A stretch of 64,000 nt of DNA from an uncultured virus (IMG/VR IMGVR_UViG_3300025096_002805) (IMGVR_UViG_3300025096_002805); one strand, 5' to 3'. Shown: positions 3,730 to 44,751, numbered from the stretch's first letter. The notes: generated by a model from the sequence alone, not told the origin. Made by a program: numbers and translations.

Positions 3730-4352
3730 CTCCAATATTTATTTATAAACTCATCTTCTATATCACCTTGCTTGTCTTCATTCATAGAAAAATGACAAAA
3801 TTTAGCCTGTGTCGATTTCTCGCCACCATTCCAAAATCTCCAAAACCATTCTTCAGGAAAGAGCTTATGTTCGTAGTTCCCAATCTTAAGTATTAGGGTC
3901 ATGACGTTATCAACTTGAGTGCCAAATAAGTCTTTGTTCTCTATGTAGTTTTCCCACATAAAGTTATGCTTATCTGCGTTAAATTTCACAATACAATCAT
4001 TATAGCCCGAACAGCCAAGCTTTTCTCCTTTTACCATGTAAAGACTATCATCTAATTCAAATAATTCGTCTATATTGTCATGAATTACCACATCTAGGTC
4101 GATATTTATACAAGGCCCCCTTAACACTCCTTTTTTAAAGAGCGCCATTCGGTTCCACCAGTGACCTAGGCCTTCATGTGGGAGAGGTCGAACGTCTATA
4201 TGACTTTCTTGGTGTTGTTTTATGCCTTTTGGGTCGTCAGTAAAGCAAATAAAGTTAAAAAAGAAAGAAGTGTTCCTTTTTACCATTGAATACAGTTTGT
4301 TCACATATTCAGAAGAGTATTTATCTCCTGTCTTAAAACAAACTACGTTCAT
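3726..4352 (-). CDS. Putative glycosyltransferase (GT-A-like, phage type)
   Basis: GDKYSSEYVNKL, FICFTD and IDLDVVI (DxD). Confidence 0.6.
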   Translation of the reverse strand: MNVVCFKTGDKYSSEYVNKLYSMVKRNTSFFFNFICFTDDPKGIKQHQESHIDVRPLPHEGLGHWWNRMALFKKGVLRGPCINIDLDVVIHDNIDELFELDDSLYMVKGEKLGCSGYNDCIVKFNADKHNFMWENYIENKDLFGTQVDNVMTLILKIGNYEHKLFPEEWFWRFWNGGEKSTQAKFCHFSMNEDKQGDIEDEFINKYWR

Positions 4353-12324: not shown

Positions 12325-12524
12325 TTCTGGGTGCTACGCTTTAAACGCAGCGTGACGCTCGGGACAATTTTCGACCCGCGCCTCCTTAGAGGTTCGCGCT
12401 CAACAGCGCTACCTTTCCAGAACGCAATGAGTCTGGACGGCAACGCGTGAAGCCGTGGCGCGGTAACGAGAACGCACTCTCTCATAACACGACGCTAGTA
12501 GCCCCTTGCGAAAGCGAGGGGCTA
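12325..12524 (+). ncRNA. Candidate multi-hairpin non-coding RNA (includes hairpin copy 2)
   Basis: Several hand-folded stems with ACGC in their loops; ends in hairpin tagccccttgc-gaaa-gcgaggggcta. Confidence 0.45.
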
Positions 12525-12596
12525 TGTCGTTAACCACCAATGACTTGTGGCCGCGGCCTCCCCCCGCGCCGTAAGTCGTTGATAATCAATGAATTA
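12523..12596. repeat. Paired-palindrome element 7 (C-rich on +), at the convergence point
   Basis: tatgtcgtta-accac-caatgacttg, 24 nt, taagtcgttg-ataat-caatgaatta. Confidence 0.88.
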
Positions 12597-12599
12597 AGG

Positions 12600-12674
12600 T
12601 GGACGCGGGAGTCGGAATCGAACCGACGAGTAAGAGATTTGCAATCTCCCGCCTTACCACTTGGCTACCCCGCG
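12600..12674 (-). tRNA. tRNA-Cys(GCA)
   Basis: Cloverleaf with anticodon loop TTGCAAA, GGTTCGATTCC, U discriminator and CCA. Confidence 0.95.
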
Positions 12675-12688
12675 CACTGTAAATTAAT

Positions 12689-12773
12689 TCCGGGCACTGT
12701 GGCTGTTTCATGAGGCACCTGAACCTCGAGCCTGTATCAGGATCTCCCTGATCACCATGGCCACGTGCCCGGA
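12689..12773 (-). ncRNA. Three-way-junction RNA motif, copy A
   Basis: P1-CATGGTG-P2(GAGAT loop)-ACAGG-P3-ATGAAACA-P1; covaries with copy B. Confidence 0.7.
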
Positions 12774-12791
12774 GTATGGTTCAGAAAATGG

Positions 12792-12908
12792 TTATTTCTT
12801 CGGGTCTCGTTTCCTATCGTATGACCCTTTACCCTTCTTTGTTTTGTGCACGCGCTGCCCCGTGTTCCAATCGACCTGACGCCTAATTTTCTTTTTGGGC
12901 TCCTTCAT
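12792..12908 (-). CDS. arfA: ArfA-like ribosome rescue peptide (38 aa, not in ORF track)
   Basis: MKEPKKKIRRQVDWNTGQRVHKTKKGKGSYDRKRDPKK carries the ArfA signature QRV..KKGKGSYxRK. Confidence 0.7.
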   Translation of the reverse strand: MKEPKKKIRRQVDWNTGQRVHKTKKGKGSYDRKRDPKK

Positions 12909-12913
12909 GGTCT

Positions 12914-13369
12914 TCAGGCCTTCACGGCATCCCAGTCGCTCAAGTCCTCCGCCGCAATCGTCAACTCCTCGTGGATATTGAGTTCCGGCGTTCTCATCTT
13001 GTGCGTGTACAGTTCTTGCGTGTTCTGGAGTGAGGCAAGGAACCTGCTGGCCTCGTCCTTTGCGAGAACATCAGCTCCTGTCTTTTGTCCCTTGAGGTTA
13101 GCTGCGCCTACATCTTGGATGACCCGCGAGCGGCATATGTTGAGGACGGCTCTGTTGAACCGCGTCTCGTCTGTCCAGAACACCGCTAGTTTGTCGGTGC
13201 GCCAGTCAAGCTCGCCGTTGGTGGCCATCCAGTTCCAGAATGCCCAAAAGCGTTGGGTTATCTCCTGCTGGTTCTCGCCCTCCATGCCGATTATCAGGGA
13301 ATCTTCGTCGATTGCCTGCCGATAGTAGTTGATTTTTTCGTTAAACATAATGTTGCAAGCCTCTCTCAC
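12914..13369 (-). CDS. Early hypothetical protein
   Basis: After promoter 13381-13409. Confidence 0.75.
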   Translation of the reverse strand: MREACNIMFNEKINYYRQAIDEDSLIIGMEGENQQEITQRFWAFWNWMATNGELDWRTDKLAVFWTDETRFNRAVLNICRSRVIQDVGAANLKGQKTGADVLAKDEASRFLASLQNTQELYTHKMRTPELNIHEELTIAAEDLSDWDAVKA

Positions 13370-13533
13370 TTGCTGGGGAAAGTATAGCATAATTAACCCC
13401 ACTTGTCAAGCTCTTTTTCTACTCCCACCAGTCGTCCCCGGCGGAATACTTCGACCACCAGTAAACGAAAAACACGACAAGGATAAGAAAACAAATAGCC
13501 ATTCCTTAAAGATACAGCAAACTTGACTAATTG

Positions 13534-14166
13534 TCAATGTTTTTTGTAGTCAATGTTCTGGACTGACTCATCCCAACAGGCCCGACAGTCCGCGCACTCG
13601 TTGCCTTGGGTAGACGCTGGGCAAGAGAACCCTTCCCGCATAACGCCGCTTGTCGTCAGACCTAGGCTCTTTGCTAACTTGGTTGGTGGTTTGCCGTCCA
13701 TCATGTAAGCAGACAAACGAATGACAAGATTGTCGGGCTTACGGCCTAATGCTATCCACTCACGAACAAAACGATATTCCCTAGTCGGCAACCAAAACTT
13801 AATGTGAGGCAACCGCCTTGCAACTTCCGCAATCTTTTCGAGATGCCAAACACCTTGAACATCACCCGAATCATGCCAGCGAAAAAAGCCAGTCTTTTCC
13901 CTTTTGCCAATCATGAAAACCATCATGTCCACCCAATCAATTTGCTCTAATGCCTTGAGCCGCTTTTTCATCGCGGCCTTAACATTTGGGAAAACATAAC
14001 GCCCTTTTCGTGCGTAACAAAAAGAACAAATCGAATCAACAACCTGTGCCAACTTGGAGCCGGTAATACAATCCTCTGCCGGTGTGCTGTAACCAAACCC
14101 CGGCATCTTCGACGGCTTGGATAAGGAGCCGACCTTTCCTTCTGCGATTTTGACAGTAAGCTTCAT
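13534..14166 (-). CDS. GP88-family phage protein (Cys-rich)
   Basis: SKPSKMPG, CSFCYARKG, FRWHDSGD, CADCRACW. Confidence 0.8.
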   Translation of the reverse strand: MKLTVKIAEGKVGSLSKPSKMPGFGYSTPAEDCITGSKLAQVVDSICSFCYARKGRYVFPNVKAAMKKRLKALEQIDWVDMMVFMIGKREKTGFFRWHDSGDVQGVWHLEKIAEVARRLPHIKFWLPTREYRFVREWIALGRKPDNLVIRLSAYMMDGKPPTKLAKSLGLTTSGVMREGFSCPASTQGNECADCRACWDESVQNIDYKKH

Positions 14167-14201
14167 AACTGCGAAAAGTATAACACAAAAGAGGCCAAGT
14201 G

Positions 14202-14447
14202 TCAAGCAAAAATTAAATCCCAGCCTTCCGGGCTAATGCCCGTGTTGGCAAACTCTCTGTCCCCAGCGTCTAACGACTTCAAACACATGATAGGTTTCCC
14301 TTGGCTCAAATCCCAAAGTTCGTGACTGGGAATTGTTACGCTGTAAGGTTTACCTGTTTTGACGCAGGGGCCAGTGAAGGTGTAGGAGTGTTCTGGCTCG
14401 TAAGCCTCCGTGTAGGTGCAAGCACTTGTTTGTATGTATCGTCCCAT
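14202..14447 (-). CDS. Hypothetical protein
   Basis: DREF..TGISPEGW; has its own promoter. Confidence 0.7.
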   Translation of the reverse strand: MGRYIQTSACTYTEAYEPEHSYTFTGPCVKTGKPYSVTIPSHELWDLSQGKPIMCLKSLDAGDREFANTGISPEGWDLIFA

Positions 14448-14513
14448 AACTTCTTATAGCATACCACAATCTGAACCTCATGTCAAGCCTTTTCCTGTCA
14501 TGTTTTACCCCTG

Positions 14514-14588
14514 TAAGTCATTGAGTATCAATGACTTAGGGCCTGCGGCCTCCCCCCGCGCCGTAAGTTGTTGGGGTGTAATGAGTTA
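14514..14588. repeat. Paired-palindrome element 8 (C-rich on +)
   Basis: taagtcattg-agtat-caatgactta (perfect), 25 nt, taagttgttg-gggtg-taatgagtta. Confidence 0.9.
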
Positions 14589-14610
14589 CGCCCCCGCTTT
14601 CGCGGGGGCG
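14589..14610. terminator. GC hairpin abutting element 8
   Basis: cgcccccgc-tttc-gcgggggcg. Confidence 0.55.
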
Positions 14611-14700
14611 TTTACCTCAGACCGAATGAAAAAAACAACAAAAGGGGAGGCGGGTTGCCTTCGCGCCAGCGGGTCTTATTTGCCCGCCTCCCCAGTGACA

Positions 14701-15588
14701 TCAAGAGGCAACAAGTATATCGTCAGACTTGACCGAGGGCTTGCGGCTCAACTTTGAGTAGTAGCTCTTGTCTTTGGCGGCTCTCGTCAACTTCCTGAGA
14801 ATGCTCTCGTTGACCTTCTCTGCATACTCAAAACGCTCGTTCTGTACGGCGTTCGGGTTCTTCCCGCTGGACAAATGCTGAGTCGCAGCATTGTAAAGCG
14901 TGTAAAGATTCCGAGCTTCATCCTCTTTGTAAGTAGGATTCACCCAAATCTTGGTGATGTCCTGCCTCAAGGAATTACTCAGCACCTTGGAGTCTTGAAG
15001 ATTCTTCAAAATGTAATCTCCAATCGTGTTATCAATTTTGACCTCGCTCAAACGAGTGAAGTCAGAACCGACTGTCTCAAAGGCATCTATCGCACGGTCG
15101 ATAGCGTTTGACACGCCGCTCAAGTCCAGCTTGCTGGAATGCTTCTGATTGAAGCTGAAAGCAGAGCGTAATCCTTTCATGCCGTTCGTGCATATCTCGC
15201 GTAACATACCCAAGTCCAGACCTGCAAAACAGGAACGGTCATAAGAGTTACGCACCGTGACACGCATATCGAGCTTGTCGCCGACCTGTGGAATGAAGAT
15301 AGACTTGTCGGTGAAGTCGTATGTTCCGTACATCGTCGCGCCATCACGCGCCACGCGGATTTCCTTCGCGTATGTAATACCCTTGTCGGTGAGGACTTCC
15401 TCAACTGAATCAACGAGGGTCGAGTTAAGCAACAAGCCATACTTGTCACTTGTTACACCAAGCACCTTGCCTGTGTCTGTCCTGCGAGTCCCCCAGTATC
15501 CCGCTTTGTTACCGTCAGAAGTTTGAAGTTCTTCCATAACAACAGGGAACCGATACTCGCCGCTTGTAGGTCTGCTTGTTCTAGCCAT
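14701..15588 (-). CDS. DUF932 / TIGR03299-like phage-plasmid protein
   Basis: RTDTGKVLGV.SD.Y, RNSYD.S, REICTNG, LYNAAT. Confidence 0.8.
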   Translation of the reverse strand: MARTSRPTSGEYRFPVVMEELQTSDGNKAGYWGTRRTDTGKVLGVTSDKYGLLLNSTLVDSVEEVLTDKGITYAKEIRVARDGATMYGTYDFTDKSIFIPQVGDKLDMRVTVRNSYDRSCFAGLDLGMLREICTNGMKGLRSAFSFNQKHSSKLDLSGVSNAIDRAIDAFETVGSDFTRLSEVKIDNTIGDYILKNLQDSKVLSNSLRQDITKIWVNPTYKEDEARNLYTLYNAATQHLSSGKNPNAVQNERFEYAEKVNESILRKLTRAAKDKSYYSKLSRKPSVKSDDILVAS

Positions 15589-15634
15589 GTTCTTATCTTA
15601 ACACTTACTGGATTAAAAGTCAAGGCAAGAAACC

Positions 15635-16255
15635 TCAGGCCATAATGGCCTGAGATTTCCGTATGAACGCCTTCGCCTTCTGCTTTGCAGCATTAGTTTT
15701 CGCGCGAAGGGCCAAAGCTGGGCTTTTCGCCTCAATCCACTCCTCGAAAAGATTCACGCAATCGTCAAATGTGCGCTGGTCAATGTCAAGGGTACGATGC
15801 TCCGCTTGAGTGTTCAAGTTAAGCATGAGGTTTTTCCTCCCGTACTTCTTGGCGATGTACCGTTGAGCGTGCCACAAGGCGTTAATCACCTGTTGCTCGT
15901 TCTCGCCGGTATCCGTCTTGGCACTAGCCTTGAACACCACGATATCGCGCCAACCTAAACGGCTGAAGCTACCGCTATGATAACCGTCATTGGTTACCTT
16001 GTTCAAATACTTCATGGTGCTGTATCCAAGCTGATCGTTTGGATTCATTAAGCGACTATGAAGGTTGCGACTAGTCCTGCCTCCATAAGTGAAGAACCGA
16101 CCATTTTTGATCGTCGCCCACGCATAGAGATGAGCCTCAGAAGGAGAGGCTTGGAGGTCGTTACAGCCACGAACGGGTGTCCCGTAAGTTCTGGCATACT
16201 CATAACCCGTGTTGTTATACACACGGCCAACGCTGGATAATGAATTCGTATTCAT
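15635..16255 (-). CDS. Hypothetical protein, possible GIY-YIG-like N-terminus
   Basis: LYAW...TYGGRTSRNLHSRL. Confidence 0.4.
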   Translation of the reverse strand: MNTNSLSSVGRVYNNTGYEYARTYGTPVRGCNDLQASPSEAHLYAWATIKNGRFFTYGGRTSRNLHSRLMNPNDQLGYSTMKYLNKVTNDGYHSGSFSRLGWRDIVVFKASAKTDTGENEQQVINALWHAQRYIAKKYGRKNLMLNLNTQAEHRTLDIDQRTFDDCVNLFEEWIEAKSPALALRAKTNAAKQKAKAFIRKSQAIMA

Positions 16256-16371
16256 TTTGTAGTTTCGTATCTGGTTTTGATCGAGTTAGTTCCCCGATCA
16301 CTTTTAATAGTATAGCATCACCTGAATGGAAAGTCAACACTTTTTTTAAAGTTTTTTTAAATTTTAAAATA

Positions 16372-16509
16372 GCGAGCGGGGCAGTCCCTATCACATTTAA
16401 GGCCGCGGCTGGGAATCCGCTAGGCCACCCTTGGGAGCGACTTGTAGGCGACACGCGAAGTTCGCCACCATCTCTAGCCATGATTTTTTCAGTCGTTCCC
16501 GCGCTCACT
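16372..16509 (-). ncRNA. Candidate structured small RNA with its own promoter
   Basis: Paired 5'/3' ends and internal stems; an overlapping GTG ORF (16215-16508) is the alternative reading. Confidence 0.45.
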
Positions 16510-16581
16510 TCTATAATCTTACCATATACTGGCCCACGTGTCAACTAAAAAATGATTCGAAACCAACGCAACGGTCCATCC

Positions 16582-16704
16582 TAAGTCGTTGAGTATCAAT
16601 GACTTACGCGCGGGGGGGAGGTCGCGGCCGTAAGTCGTTGGGTATCAGTTACTTAGGGAATAGAAAGCGAAAAAAGTCATAAGTTATTGATATTAAATGA
16701 TTTA
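16582..16704. repeat. Paired-palindrome element 9 (G-rich on +) plus a third palindrome
   Basis: Palindromes at 16582-16606, 16631-16655 and 16680-16704, each separated by 24 nt. Confidence 0.9.
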
Positions 16705-16822
16705 CATCTCATTTCATTGCCTATTATTTGGAGTATTTTAAAAAAGTGGGCAAATTATTTGTTCTTATTATTATTAACTCATTTGATTATTTGTATATTT
16801 GTAATATTTAAGAAAAGTGGGC

Positions 16823-16850
16823 AAAAAAAAGACCCCGCCGAAGCGGGGTC
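16823..16850 (-). terminator. Intrinsic terminator
   Basis: gaccccgc-ttcg-gcggggtc followed by T8 on the minus strand. Confidence 0.85.
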
Positions 16851-16869
16851 ACTATGAGGGAAGGAGAGG

Positions 16870-16945
16870 GGAGACTCCGGTGTTTCACTAGGGTAACCTA
16901 CAAACCCTGTCCACGCATCTCGCGCAGCACCATGCCGAAGGCTCC
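16870..16945 (-). ncRNA. Three-way-junction RNA motif, copy B
   Basis: Same junction sequences as copy A with different, still-pairing stems. Confidence 0.7.
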
Positions 16946-16953
16946 TTACGCCG

Positions 16954-17166
16954 CTAGGTGCGGCGTTTGGTTTTCGCGCCGACCGAGGTCGTGCGACGGG
17001 CCGCTTTTGGCCCATTCATGACCGCTTTGAACGCGGCCTTGTTAACAGGCTCATATCGATGAGCGTGTTGATTGATGTTCACCAACTGCGTAGCAGTCAG
17101 TATCTTCAAGCTGCCGCCGGACTGGCGTTCAACTTCCAACTGATATGTATGATTGCGCATACCCAT
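16954..17166 (-). CDS. Small hypothetical protein
   Basis: Has its own promoter, 17215-17243. Confidence 0.65.
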   Translation of the reverse strand: MGMRNHTYQLEVERQSGGSLKILTATQLVNINQHAHRYEPVNKAAFKAVMNGPKAARRTTSVGAKTKRRT

Positions 17167-17239
17167 AATTTTTTCTTGTTTCGTTTGCGGGAACTGTTCC
17201 CTGACTACTTCTTAATTATACCAGTACCTGTGCTCAAAG

Positions 17240-18169
17240 TCAAGCAATTAGTTTCAAATAATCAAGTCCTTTTGCTGTTATGTTTCTTCCAGCAGTTGTT
17301 ATCTCCATCAAGGAATGCTTTTGCAAGTAGATTTCAAAATCTCTTTGTACTGCTTGCTTTGAAAGACCAGTTTTTGCAGACAAATTAGTAAGACTGCAAT
17401 CCTTGTGGTCTTTCAGAATGTTGAGCAACTGAATTTCCGTAATGTTCAAGCCAAGAGGGAAGATACTGAGAATCCCGCTCAATTCCTGCCAATCCTTCTG
17501 TTTGAATCCTGTAACCTTTTTCTGTTTGCAATAAGACTCAATCTTTTGAGCCATCTTTTGTGCTGCTCTCGCATTACCGCGCAAGACAGAGGCGATATCC
17601 TGTAATGTTTTTGAATCAATGTCAATGTCGAGGTTCAAATTAACAATCTGACCCATCTCATCCAAGGTGTACTCCTCCAAATCTACACGCTCAAGCCTGT
17701 CCATCAAGGCGTGAAATACGGATTGAGTCTCAGTTGTCGCAAACATGAATGACAGTCTGCGAAAGTCGAAGTCAACCGTATAGTCCTCGTATGAGAAGGT
17801 AGTAAGGTTATCTGGATTGGGATTCAGAATGGTCAACAATGCCATCGTCACATCCTTGGGAATCTCACTACATTCGTCGAACAAGATAGTAGCATCCCTG
17901 TCCTGCATGATTGGAATAACCAACTGATTAAAAAACTGCTTCACATTCTTAATCGTAGAACAGTTAATCTCAAAGTACCTCTTGGCATCGTCAATGCGCT
18001 TGAGCCTACGAGCAACTGCCTTGGCTAATGTCGTTTTGCCGCATCCTTTCGGTGCGACGAACATGAGATGAGGCATGACCTTGGTTTGTTTGAAACCATC
18101 GCAAAAGAAATTAAGAACTCGCTTTGCGTTGTCTTGACCAATGATGCTTGGGAAAAGAGTCGTATCCAT
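17240..18169 (-). CDS. ruvB: RuvB-like AAA+ ATPase
   Basis: IIGQ, PKGCGKTTLA, LFDE, ATTE, DRL, RGNAR and a C-terminal winged-helix region. Confidence 0.75.
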   Translation of the reverse strand: MDTTLFPSIIGQDNAKRVLNFFCDGFKQTKVMPHLMFVAPKGCGKTTLAKAVARRLKRIDDAKRYFEINCSTIKNVKQFFNQLVIPIMQDRDATILFDECSEIPKDVTMALLTILNPNPDNLTTFSYEDYTVDFDFRRLSFMFATTETQSVFHALMDRLERVDLEEYTLDEMGQIVNLNLDIDIDSKTLQDIASVLRGNARAAQKMAQKIESYCKQKKVTGFKQKDWQELSGILSIFPLGLNITEIQLLNILKDHKDCSLTNLSAKTGLSKQAVQRDFEIYLQKHSLMEITTAGRNITAKGLDYLKLIA

Positions 18170-18895: not shown

Positions 18896-18970
18896 TGGTA
18901 GGTCGGGTGAGAGTCGAACTCACAACCAATAGCTTAAAAGGCTACTGCTCTACCATTGAGCTACCAACCT
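18896..18970 (-). tRNA. tRNA-Lys(UUU)
   Basis: Cloverleaf with loop CTTTTAA and CCA end. Confidence 0.95.
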
Positions 18971-40926: not shown

Positions 40927-41003
40927 TGGAGCCACCTCTTGGATTCGAACCAAGGCGCTTCCGATTACAAATCGGATGCTCTGCCGGACTGAGCTAAGGT
41001 GGC
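40927..41003 (-). tRNA. tRNA-Thr(UGU)
   Basis: Cloverleaf with loop TTTGTAA and CCA. Confidence 0.93.
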
Positions 41004-44674: not shown

Positions 44675-44751
44675 TGGTACCCCGAGCTGGACTCGAACCG
44701 GCAACCCTCTGCTTAGAAGGCAGATGCTCTATCCAATTGAGCTATCGGGGC
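44675..44751 (-). tRNA. tRNA-Arg(UCU)
   Basis: Cloverleaf with loop CTTCTAA and CCA. Confidence 0.95.

Follow-up and report, generated by a model that had tools for sequence, protein, structure and literature searches.

Two RNA elements in an environmental virus genome belong to a large, uncatalogued three-way-junction family carried mainly by tailed phages and prophages

The stretch of DNA considered here, 64,000 nucleotides (nt) of an uncultured virus (IMG/VR IMGVR_UViG_3300025096_002805) and hereafter called the window, harbors two copies of a structured RNA element on its minus strand, copy A at 12690-12772 and copy B at 16870-16945. An initial annotation had placed a two-copy three-way-junction motif at these positions, and a letter-by-letter check of copy A and a coordinate check of copy B agree with that placement. 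Both elements are, with near certainty, members of a large uncatalogued family of three-way-junction RNAs of 70-105 nt, and the carriers, with the same near certainty, are mainly tailed phages and prophages. The two-copy framing has proved too narrow, since three complete phage genomes contain one copy each and the family is spread across many phyla.

The element is built in the order P1-J1/2-P2-ACA-P3-J3/1-P1'. The closing stem P1 is of variable sequence and 5-19 base pairs (bp) long, and it leads through the junction strand J1/2, N-AUGGUR, into P2, which is fixed at 6 bp and capped by a GNRA-like pentaloop, GAGAN or rarely GAAAU. The trinucleotide ACA then precedes P3, a variable hairpin that usually has GG at its start and CC at its end, and the junction strand J3/1, (R-U)-GAAACA, leads back into P1.

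In copy A the 5' strand of P1, CCGGGCACGUGGC, occupies 12760-12772 and is partnered by 12690-12703, such that CCGGGCAC-GUGGC pairs with GCCAC-A-GUGCCCGG, 13 nt against 14 nt, with a single bulged A, which makes the stem longer than the initial annotation had drawn it. J1/2 (12753-12759) reads CAUGGUG, in keeping with the family consensus, and is followed by the P2 hairpin AUCAGG-GAGAU-CCUGAU (12736-12752, loop 12742-12746). The remaining ACA-P3-J3/1 region (12704-12735) is composed of ACA at 12733-12735, a P3 that in the family register joins GGC at 12730-12732 to GCC at 12714-12716, and J3/1, UCAUGAAACA, at 12704-12713. The P1 of copy B is formed by GGAG-C-CUUCGG (16935-16945) and CCGGAG-U-CUCC (16870-16880). 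Its J1/2 is again CAUGGUG (16928-16934), its P2 hairpin is CUGCGC-GAGAU-GCGUGG (16911-16927, loop 16917-16921) with one U-G pair, and its ACA-P3-J3/1 region (16881-16910) encompasses ACA at 16908-16910, a P3 of GGG (16905-16907) with CCC (16891-16893), and the J3/1 strand UAGUGAAACA at 16881-16890. All of these parts are on the minus strand.

The pattern CATGGTG-N(10-40)-ACAGG-N(10-40)-TGAAACA has exactly two matches in the window, and none of 100 dinucleotide shuffles contains any. The elements have a G+C content of 58-60% against 40.7% for the window. Copy A folds with an energy z-score of -3.18, and none of 200 shuffles is as stable; for copy B the z-score is +0.69 and 148 of 200 shuffles are at least as stable, so that energy alone gives no support and the case for this copy is one of homology and covariation.

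The homology was established with a covariance model, R1 (87 positions, 20 pairs), built from a plain MAFFT alignment of 41 examples (set A1). A search with such a model had been put forward in the initial annotation as a check, and it returned many viral, genome, and metagenome matches. Within the window only copy B (69.3 bits, E 8.1e-16) and copy A (66.8 bits, E 3.6e-15) match. Three pattern scans of viral contigs returned at least 118, at least 120, and at least 120 loci, many of them chance matches, and among these the core with properly paired P1 and P2 recurs with wholly different stem sequences. In the first scan, 100 of the at least 118 loci were searched with R1 and gave 22 strong matches (at least 54.9 bits), the next best score being 23 bits; in the second it gave 53 matches (E <= 0.01; 42.8-84.4 bits) in 100 searched of at least 120. 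A stricter 21-base pattern, applied to one-genome-per-species contigs, yielded 39 bacterial and archaeal genome loci, 28 of which contain a total of 31 R1 matches. The same pattern found at least 122 loci in metagenomes, and 98 of the 100 searched match the model.

Members were found on contigs from marine, freshwater, soil, peat, and sediment sources. The labels of the carrier genomes and metagenome-assembled genomes (MAGs) include Verrucomicrobia, Spirochaetota, Acidobacteria, Streptomyces, Nocardia, Myxococcales, Nannocystaceae, Flavobacteriales, Planctomycetota, Gemmatimonadota, Omnitrophota, and Chthoniobacter, together with one Bathyarchaeota MAG contig. Occurrence in bacteria is sporadic: among 121 genomes of one Verrucomicrobia order 4 have the element, and among 121 in a sample of the Streptomyces family only 1 does, this being the centre genome itself, although the sampling scored only 36 candidates per genome and may have missed weak copies. 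Single genomes hold up to 3-5 copies. Tandem copies are found at three loci (L376, L464, and L503), and on one metagenome contig a distance of 1.4 kb separates two copies.

Some of the multicopy genomes display further features. A Spirochaetota MAG (loci L388, L392, L394, L361, and L411) has at least five copies with similar P1 and P2, including a degenerate one (loop GACGU, ACGGG), and an inverted partial copy lies about 330 nt downstream of the copy in L388. Streptomyces sp. N35 has three copies, at 4185-4271 and 68885-68972 of contig C187 and at 22774-22861 of contig C232; the two on C187 share an orientation and lie near both ends of this 69.6-kb contig, whose open reading frames (ORFs) are without Pfam matches. 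The 120 further genomes sampled from its family gave no match. Nocardia suismassiliense is another carrier. In Luteolibacter pohnpeiensis, three contigs of 0.8-1.6 kb (C6, C51, and C52; loci L405, L410, and L408) begin with a variant element (AAUGGUG, ACAGCC), suggesting that a prophage-like repeat interrupted the assembly. The nearest record to the window genome, a 47-kb fragment, has no match, and a blastn search of cultured phages with the 4.9-kb region gave tRNA matches only. A search with a 64-nt member as query, which returned short matches, produced a sole cultured-phage candidate in an unannotated stretch near the genome end of Microcystis phage Mae-JY24 (PP438416.1; L415:1479-1565). 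This sequence is not counted as a member, as it scores 23 bits and has a divergent junction (GACUAGA, UUGAACA).

The fold is supported by covariation over the 10 pairs of P1, the 6 of P2, and the 4 of P3, which were counted against 500 shuffles per set and against registers in which the partner strand was slid. In set A1 (41 sequences), 83.7% of positions are paired against 53.5% in shuffles, and the covariation score is 0.741 against 0.213, with 0.195 for the best slid register. The corresponding values are 88.0% against 53.7% and 0.811 against 0.217 (best slid 0.158) in the genome set A2 (31 sequences), and 89.5% against 52.9% and 0.865 against 0.201 (best slid 0.149) in the metagenome set A5 (93 distinct sequences), where A2 and A5 were aligned to the model and their counts lean towards it. 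None of the 500 shuffles reaches the observed pairing or covariation in any of the three sets. All 10 pairs of P1 and all 6 of P2 change on both sides, and P2 is 97.8-99.3% paired. RNAalifold independently gives the same three helices and adds two invariant pairs, G-C and U-A, by which P2 would be extended into AUGGUG and ACA, leaving a bulged G. In A5 the pairs of P2 are frequently G-U, and non-pairs number only 0-2 per pair among the 93 sequences, from which it follows that the fold belongs to this strand.

The initial annotation had described compensatory change in all three stems. For P1 and P2 this is upheld by the family covariation; for P3 the register has to be corrected, as the pairings given, GAGG/CCUC in copy A and UAGG/CCUA in copy B, fall outside the conserved one, the former being a thermodynamic alternative in folding. 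In the family register, the GG of ACAGG pairs with a conserved CC just before R-U-GAAACA. The third pair of P3 alternates between G-C and C-G, and the P3 segment as a whole spans 12-37 nt and tolerates inserts. The broader proposal of a functional structured RNA is supported, given strand-specific covariation across about 200 independent sequences and the lack of any match in Rfam 15.

Each scan fixed some of the motifs, and invariance was accordingly judged from the scans that left one motif free. With J1/2 free, the sequence recovered is N-ATGGT(G/A). With the loop free it is GAGAN, the last base being U in 59, A in 11, G in 9, and C in 5 of 84. With J3/1 free it is GAAACA, with one GAAAUA exception. 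The model-based genome and metagenome matches mark the limits of this variation, namely AUGAUG or AUGCUG in J1/2, ACU or ACC in place of ACA, CCC or GCC at the start of P3, and one GAAAU loop. These limits indicate that the loop is a GNRA-type tetraloop with one added nucleotide. The R-U before GAAACA is only semi-conserved and is replaced by GA, CG, UU, AA, or CC in some members. Overall, around 20 nucleotides are invariant, and these are concentrated in the multi-helix junction while the stems vary freely. Contingency tables between loop and junction, covering the few positions N1 of J1/2, N5 of the loop, and the closing pairs, disclosed no convincing partner; one correlation, of N1 = A with CAC before GAAACA, is confined to a single lineage. 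A reading of AUGAAACA and GGAG as start codon and Shine-Dalgarno sequence was rejected, as the R-U is replaceable and the loop-closing pair is often C-G.

A distinct line of evidence comes from one group of marine-type phages in which the element lies in frame within the gene for the large terminase, TerL, at the position of the acidic linker that joins the ATPase half of the protein to the nuclease half. There it is translated as ...G-M-V-S-G-E-I-P-E-Q...C-E-T-P.... The ORF (L251:1553-3517, minus strand; proteins P0001-P0020, P0060, and P0073 for the clade) is assigned as large terminase from 27-28% identity to annotated terminases in a search with its N-terminal half. Among the best 120 homologues, 105 are full length; 20 of these 105 have the peptide signature and 85 are without the whole segment. 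A quick maximum-likelihood tree was made with the linker masked from 60 rows, comprising 18 that have the insertion and alternate rows from those that lack it, with four rows left out where the masking pattern failed. The 18 insertion-bearing rows form one clade with a single change and a support of 96 in the Shimodaira-Hasegawa-like approximate likelihood ratio test (SH-aLRT), and their sister, P0016, lacks the segment. A single such clade points to one old insertion rather than repeated gains, and a recurrent mobile insertion into TerL was rejected on these grounds.

The insertion has been kept through divergence to around 60% protein identity. Changes within its P2 are compensatory in the RNA yet alter the protein, as in UCUGGG/CCCAGA against UCCGAG/CUCGGA. 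The retention of the element in the terminase is strong evidence that selection acts on the nucleic-acid fold. The clade can be considered a natural experiment on RNA-level selection inside an ORF, and it sits awkwardly with models that have the element destroying or terminating its own carrier transcript.

The window is a phage early region, whose genes include those for a clamp-loader/RuvB-like ATPase, a DUF932 protein, and a GP88-family protein. The neighbors that the initial annotation had assigned to the two copies are all present. A gene for tRNA-Cys(GCA) (12600-12674, minus) lies 15 nt downstream of copy A. Copy B is separated by a 19-nt gap from a strong intrinsic terminator, GACCCCGC-UUCG-GCGGGGUC followed by U8 (16823-16850, minus; hairpin 16850-16831), and the intervening sequence is a C/U-rich single-stranded tail, CCUCUCCUUCCCUCAUAGU (16851-16869, minus). 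Such pyrimidine-rich tails after P1 recur in other family members. Both copies also follow a small gene, as had been described. For copy B this is an ORF of 70 amino acids (16954-17166, minus) with no Pfam or PHROG match, whose TAG codon (16954-16956) ends 8 nt before P1; for copy A it is a doubtful ORF of 38 amino acids preceded by one of 162. The 38-residue product (12792-12908, minus), located between the 162-residue gene and copy A, would be very basic (MKEPKKKIRRQ...). In two relatives, L250 and L274, this spacer is missing, and the element comes close after the homologous gene and is followed by a terminator, not by tRNA-Cys.

A near-consensus sigma70-like promoter, TTGACT-17-TATAAT (17215-17243, minus), would drive a unit made up of the 70-residue ORF, copy B, the C/U-rich tail, and the terminator. 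Both copies are downstream of strong promoters. Seven near-consensus TG-extended sigma70-like promoters of the TTGACA-17-TATACT type are found on the minus strand of 13381-17243, approximately one per gene, with 17 promoter-like sites in total against an expectation of 4.4. The same promoters give rise to repeated 'TTG-M-T..' pseudo-ORF starts in the ORF list. In the AT-rich spacer past the terminator of copy B (about 16733-16835, minus) there are two copies of TTGCCCACTTTT, each followed by a TTAAA-like sequence, and these repeats could be phage-specific promoters or iterons. The tRNA-Cys gene is one of four tRNA genes in the window, the others being Lys-UUU (18896-18970), Thr-UGU (40927-41003), and Arg-UCU (44675-44751), all on the minus strand.

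Four RNA runs were also compared with the stretch, in the form of assembled contigs that contain only 5-10% of the sampled words of 12500-17200 and carry no information on ends, strand, or abundance. One metatranscriptome contig spans 16858-17147, and hence copy B and its ORF, with zero differences, although DNA carry-over is possible; copy A is covered by no contig from these runs.

Across the family, 46 cases have an upstream ORF of at least 50 codons, and in 30 of them the distance from its stop codon to P1 is 3-13 nt, six of these cases being of one lineage. Use of the stop codons is even (TGA 17, TAA 15, TAG 14) and the gaps vary between -2 and 49 nt, and on both counts a stimulator of stop-codon read-through or frameshifting was rejected. 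The upstream genes are diverse and encode, among others, RusA, a replication initiator, an SSB-like protein, the major head protein, a DNA methyltransferase, and an HNH protein, within a wider neighborhood given over mostly to replication, recombination, and nucleotide metabolism. From crude longest-ORF calls, the neighbor is co-oriented with the element at 35 of 47 loci upstream and at 27 of 47 downstream, and 13 of the 47 loci lie at convergent gene ends. There is no enrichment of terminators in the 90 nt downstream, with one present in 4 of 71 as compared with 7 of 177 control stretches, though a terminator does follow the relatives of copy A as well. P1 is succeeded by a U-run in 11 of 71 members. 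A tRNA gene lies 4-15 nt downstream in five lineages (window copy A, the L119 group, L181, L196, and L318) and directly upstream in L380. No conserved neighboring protein emerged from an all-versus-all comparison of 356 flanking ORFs from 49 loci and the window, in which no family occurs at more than 5 loci and the largest, at 5, comes from close relatives only.

Several individual loci add to this picture. In two clean complete phage genomes, G127 and G128, the element sits mid-block in long co-directional gene runs, away from GC-skew extremes and strand switches, and placement at an origin of replication is unsupported there by skew or gene blocks; the third complete genome, G129, gives an ambiguous picture. 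In G127, a gene for a TROVE-domain (Ro60-like) protein lies 1.2 kb downstream of the element (L270:3832-5043), with no YrlA or Y RNA found there by Rfam; among the lineages compared, only this one has a TROVE gene nearby. A scan of two Verrucomicrobia loci, L412 and L414, for a sigma70-like promoter of an independent small RNA gene found none, and in L412 a terminator-like hairpin of the upstream gene stands just before the element. In a Verrucomicrobia MAG (L391:2987-3200), the element is about 70 nt upstream of an ORF starting MARICELTGKRPMKGS, whose N-terminus resembles that of ribosomal protein L28, with smpB nearby.

Our tentative best guess as to function is a stable RNA domain, complete in itself, with a conserved component of the host as its binding partner. 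This is favored because the RNA alone is constant across contexts, with no fixed neighbor, gene side, or partner, and in hosts that differ widely. The element would ride as a passenger on any phage transcript that carries it, without a dedicated protein, having its usual seat in the 3' untranslated stretch right after a gene and otherwise being accommodated beside tRNAs, before a terminator, or in an ORF. The flanks may be removed by RNase P at adjoining tRNAs, by termination, or by exonuclease trimming, and the long P1 and compact junction would then allow the element to persist as a small stable RNA. The GNRA-like loop may dock on the junction such that the invariant nucleotides form one specific surface or pocket, which would bind a host protein, an RNA end, or a small molecule that is conserved across bacterial phyla and is titrated or redirected to the benefit of the phage. 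Maturation, stability, action in trans, and a bound partner are the components that we infer. Several points weigh against such a domain. The RNA data, as assembled contigs lacking ends and abundance, give no direct sign of a stable small RNA, and most loci are without a nearby terminator or tRNA by which it could be released (a terminator within 90 nt at 4 of 71, against 7 of 177). The few loop and junction positions compared show no covariation from which a pocket could be drawn. A cis role on the mRNA of the upstream gene would account just as well for the close link to its stop codon, and the orientation counts (35 of 47 and 27 of 47) rest on a crude gene call. Finally, ribosomes must melt the fold when it lies within the TerL ORF, which is awkward for any RNA-level role.

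Among the alternatives, a cis-acting 3'-end element is one that we consider rather unlikely. The fold would stall 3'-to-5' exonucleases or act as an RNase processing signal, and so protect the upstream mRNA; an equally restrained estimate applies to the idea that it is the bacterial-virus counterpart of the exonuclease-resistant viral RNAs. Such a role would account for the proximity of P1 to the upstream stop codon (13 nt or less in 30 of 46 cases), for the excess of co-oriented genes upstream (35 of 47) over downstream (27 of 47) and the 13 of 47 convergent loci, for features that would place the element at the 3' end of an RNA, namely P1 with a U-run (11 of 71), the tRNAs 4-15 nt downstream in five lineages, and the terminators past copy B and the relatives of copy A, and also for the tandem copies. 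However, a plain hairpin would suffice for this purpose, and the 20 invariant junction nucleotides therefore want some other reason; within the TerL ORF only a stop-less half mRNA would be protected, the L412 element comes after the ordinary terminator-like hairpin of its upstream gene, and neither a pseudoknot nor a ring-closing covariation appears among the few positions compared. Another alternative, one of the suggestions of the initial annotation, is a new small self-cleaving ribozyme, with the invariant junction as its active site, that would cut polycistronic or tRNA-containing transcripts. It would suit the concentration of about 20 invariant nucleotides in a multi-helix junction with freely varying stems, and the phage-rich but sporadic distribution over many phyla, sometimes multicopy or in tandem, with no partner, varied neighbors, and tRNA adjacency, is like that of known small ribozymes. 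We nevertheless regard a ribozyme as unlikely. Efficient cleavage would destroy the mRNA of the essential TerL, in which the element has been retained in frame since one insertion; across the 26 loci scanned, no hammerhead, twister, or other known ribozyme occurs within about 3 kb; and no known ribozyme model matches at E <= 10. It also counts slightly against it that no circularly permuted form was present among 24 loci from a permuted pattern, all of which were ordinary members with a chance upstream GAAACA or chance matches in coding sequence. An aptamer-only RNA "sponge", which would have no expression platform or protein partner and would soak up a universal bacterial molecule important in infection, is an improbable proposal. 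A nucleotide second messenger used in anti-phage immunity is one candidate molecule, and a free tRNA 3' end is another. J1/2 contains UGGUG, the complement of the usual tRNA end CACCA, and pairing with the tRNA CCA end is kept as a candidate only within this idea, three genomic members with AUGAUG or AUGCUG speaking against it. If true, a sponge would be the RNA counterpart of the phage protein sponges that act against signaling-based defense, and it would explain function from any transcript, in any phylum, and often beside phage tRNA genes.

The remaining alternatives are less probable again. A folded single-stranded-DNA signal, either a lagging-strand site for priming or initiation or another signal for replication or packaging, would be in keeping with a location that is often within the replication and recombination module, with tolerance inside an ORF, and with the usual single copy per phage genome, and a lagging-strand role would also give strand specificity. 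We think it very unlikely. In both clean complete genomes the element is found mid-block, away from strand switches and from the extremes of GC skew; it occurs in several scattered and tandem copies in bacterial chromosomes; and it lies right next to tRNA genes (0-15 nt), a position suggestive of joint transcription and processing. GNRA-type loops and A-rich junctions are typical RNA tertiary motifs, and the presence of both thus argues for RNA, as, weakly, does the occurrence of the element in an RNA library contig. Little probability, likewise, attaches to a protein-independent processive antiterminator or anti-pausing RNA acting on RNA polymerase, like HK022 put or Bacillus EAR. The operon-internal, co-oriented positions in early replication and recombination blocks, the absence of a partner protein, and a presumed target that is universal are what such an RNA would lead one to expect. 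Both window copies, moreover, come past strong promoters, with copy B 19 nt before a strong terminator, and the put RNAs are described as being of around 70 nt, with two stem-loops, and present twice per genome (PMC9378689). Against this, there is no enrichment of terminators downstream (4 of 71 as compared with 7 of 177), 11 of 71 members have a U-run after their own P1, the 13 of 47 convergent loci have nothing downstream to read into, and three complete phage genomes have one copy, mid-operon. The put fold is also different and without a closing stem. Least probable of all, and to our minds highly improbable, is a riboswitch, that is, a ligand-sensing aptamer controlling a neighboring gene in cis. 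The three-way junction with invariant nucleotides and a GNRA-type loop is a typical aptamer build, P1 and its U-run (11 of 71) could serve as a ligand-stabilized terminator, and the L391 element does lie about 70 nt upstream of the L28-like ORF; but no gene family or expression platform recurs consistently downstream of the element, its positions are mostly 3' of genes and sometimes in an ORF or between tRNAs, and no Rfam riboswitch model matches.

As the element matches nothing catalogued, it is new at the level of the RNA family, and the kind of function is a separate matter. A compact RNA with around 20 invariant nucleotides, very strong covariation, and hundreds of environmental examples in many phyla has the profile of earlier new classes of ribozyme, riboswitch, or RNA-protein complex. 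With no dedicated protein, and with hosts that range from Streptomyces to Verrucomicrobia to those of marine phages, it must be expected to have either its own activity or a universal bacterial target, and either would add an RNA-only function to phage biology. At 70-100 nt, the family is suited to immediate biochemical and structural work.

The initial annotation could match the motif to no known riboswitch or ribozyme class, and this is borne out by Rfam 15 (4227 models), in which no family matches. At gathering thresholds, the whole window returns only its four tRNAs. With permissive filters and E <= 10, window 12400-17300 gives nothing over copy A and only chance-level, terminator-driven hits over copy B (rsmX at 23 bits against 56, istR at 17.8 against 45). 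At the same E-value, two other members give only mir-1304 (13.3 bits) and, on the opposite strand, Methylobacterium-1 (15.5 bits). The 26 carrier loci scanned contain tRNAs only, and no hammerhead, twister, or other ribozyme within about 3 kb. No description of the element was found in the literature, a search that did not extend to supplements and could miss a motif given only there. The hammerhead has a core formed by the strands CUGANGA and GAAA at a three-way junction, with cleavage at a UH site. It is rejected because the junction strands here are N-AUGGUR, ACA, and (RU)GAAACA in 84 of 84 unique members, with no hammerhead model match. The ribozymes of the hepatitis delta virus (HDV)-like or theta type fold as a nested double pseudoknot in which sequence 5' of the outer stem is the partner of the strand that follows the first hairpin; copies A and B have no complement of ACAGG upstream of P1, on the weak ground of inspection, and no HDV-family match at E <= 10. 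Twister-sister, pistol, hatchet, and twister were rejected in the same way, with no covariance-model match at E <= 10. An intrinsic terminator is inconsistent with a T-run after P1 in just 11 of 71 members and in neither window copy. A tRNA or tRNA-like gene does not agree with a P2 loop of 5 nt and a P1 of 5-19 bp, and neither ARAGORN nor Rfam calls a tRNA on the element. Integron attC sites have conserved core sites, the R'' and R' boxes, at the base of the stem, and an integron integrase close by, whereas the base of P1 has no conserved sequence and no integrase or other flanking protein recurs, so that attC and other folded single-stranded-DNA recombination sites are also set aside. The prevailing position 3' of a co-oriented gene, with diverse neighbors and no common flanking protein family, is not that of a riboswitch, and the covarying closing stem P1 and lack of enrichment for downstream terminators are not those of an HK022 put-type RNA, which is placed between a promoter and terminators and binds the beta' zinc-binding domain of RNA polymerase.

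Several known systems resemble the element in part. With the small stable RNAs of phage tRNA clusters and the YrlA Y RNAs of bacteria and phages, the element shares a location among phage tRNAs, with which it would also be processed, and a long closing stem formed from both ends, and one carrier phage, G127, encodes the Ro60-like TROVE protein; it differs in that no YrlA or tRNA model matches, that the TROVE gene is near only one of the lineages compared, and that its arm lengths and loops are not tRNA-like. In the GEMM-I riboswitch for cyclic di-GMP (c-di-GMP-I), P1 closes two side-by-side hairpins, the first of which has a GNRA-type loop. This layout and loop, and invariant purine-rich junction strands, are common to the element and to GEMM-I and other three-way-junction riboswitch aptamers, but the element lacks an Rfam riboswitch score, 5' untranslated placement, an expression platform, and a gene association. 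The exonuclease-resistant RNAs of flaviviruses are three-way junctions with conserved junction nucleotides that are located in the 3' untranslated region just past the stop codon, sometimes in tandem, and whose ring-forming pseudoknot stops a eukaryotic exonuclease that works from 5' to 3'. The element has a similar conserved three-way junction, post-stop placement, and tandem copies, but is without sequence likeness to them or pseudoknot covariation among the few positions compared, and its hosts are bacteria. HK022 putL and putR are likewise of around 70 nt, protein-independent, and found in the phage early region; the window has two copies that each come past a promoter, and copy B is set, like putR, between a small ORF and a terminator. 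However, put RNA takes the form of a V, in which two stem-loops and a triplex are present without a closing stem (PMC9378689), whereas the element has a covarying P1 that closes a three-way junction, terminators that are not enriched, and many copies at gene ends. The noncoding RNAs of UG27 units, as described in a 2026 preprint, are of about 150 nt and have other motifs. The small phage ribozymes, which include the hammerhead, twister, pistol, hatchet, and the HDV-like theta ribozymes found by tRNAs, differ from the element in its core of N-AUGGUR/GAGAN/ACA/GAAACA, in its lack of an Rfam match and of permuted forms, and in its retention within an essential ORF. In other respects the element mirrors them, in its size of 70-100 nt, its multi-helix junction with few invariant nucleotides, its sporadic, phage-rich spread over many phyla with no partner gene, its occasional adjacency to tRNAs, and its tandem copies.

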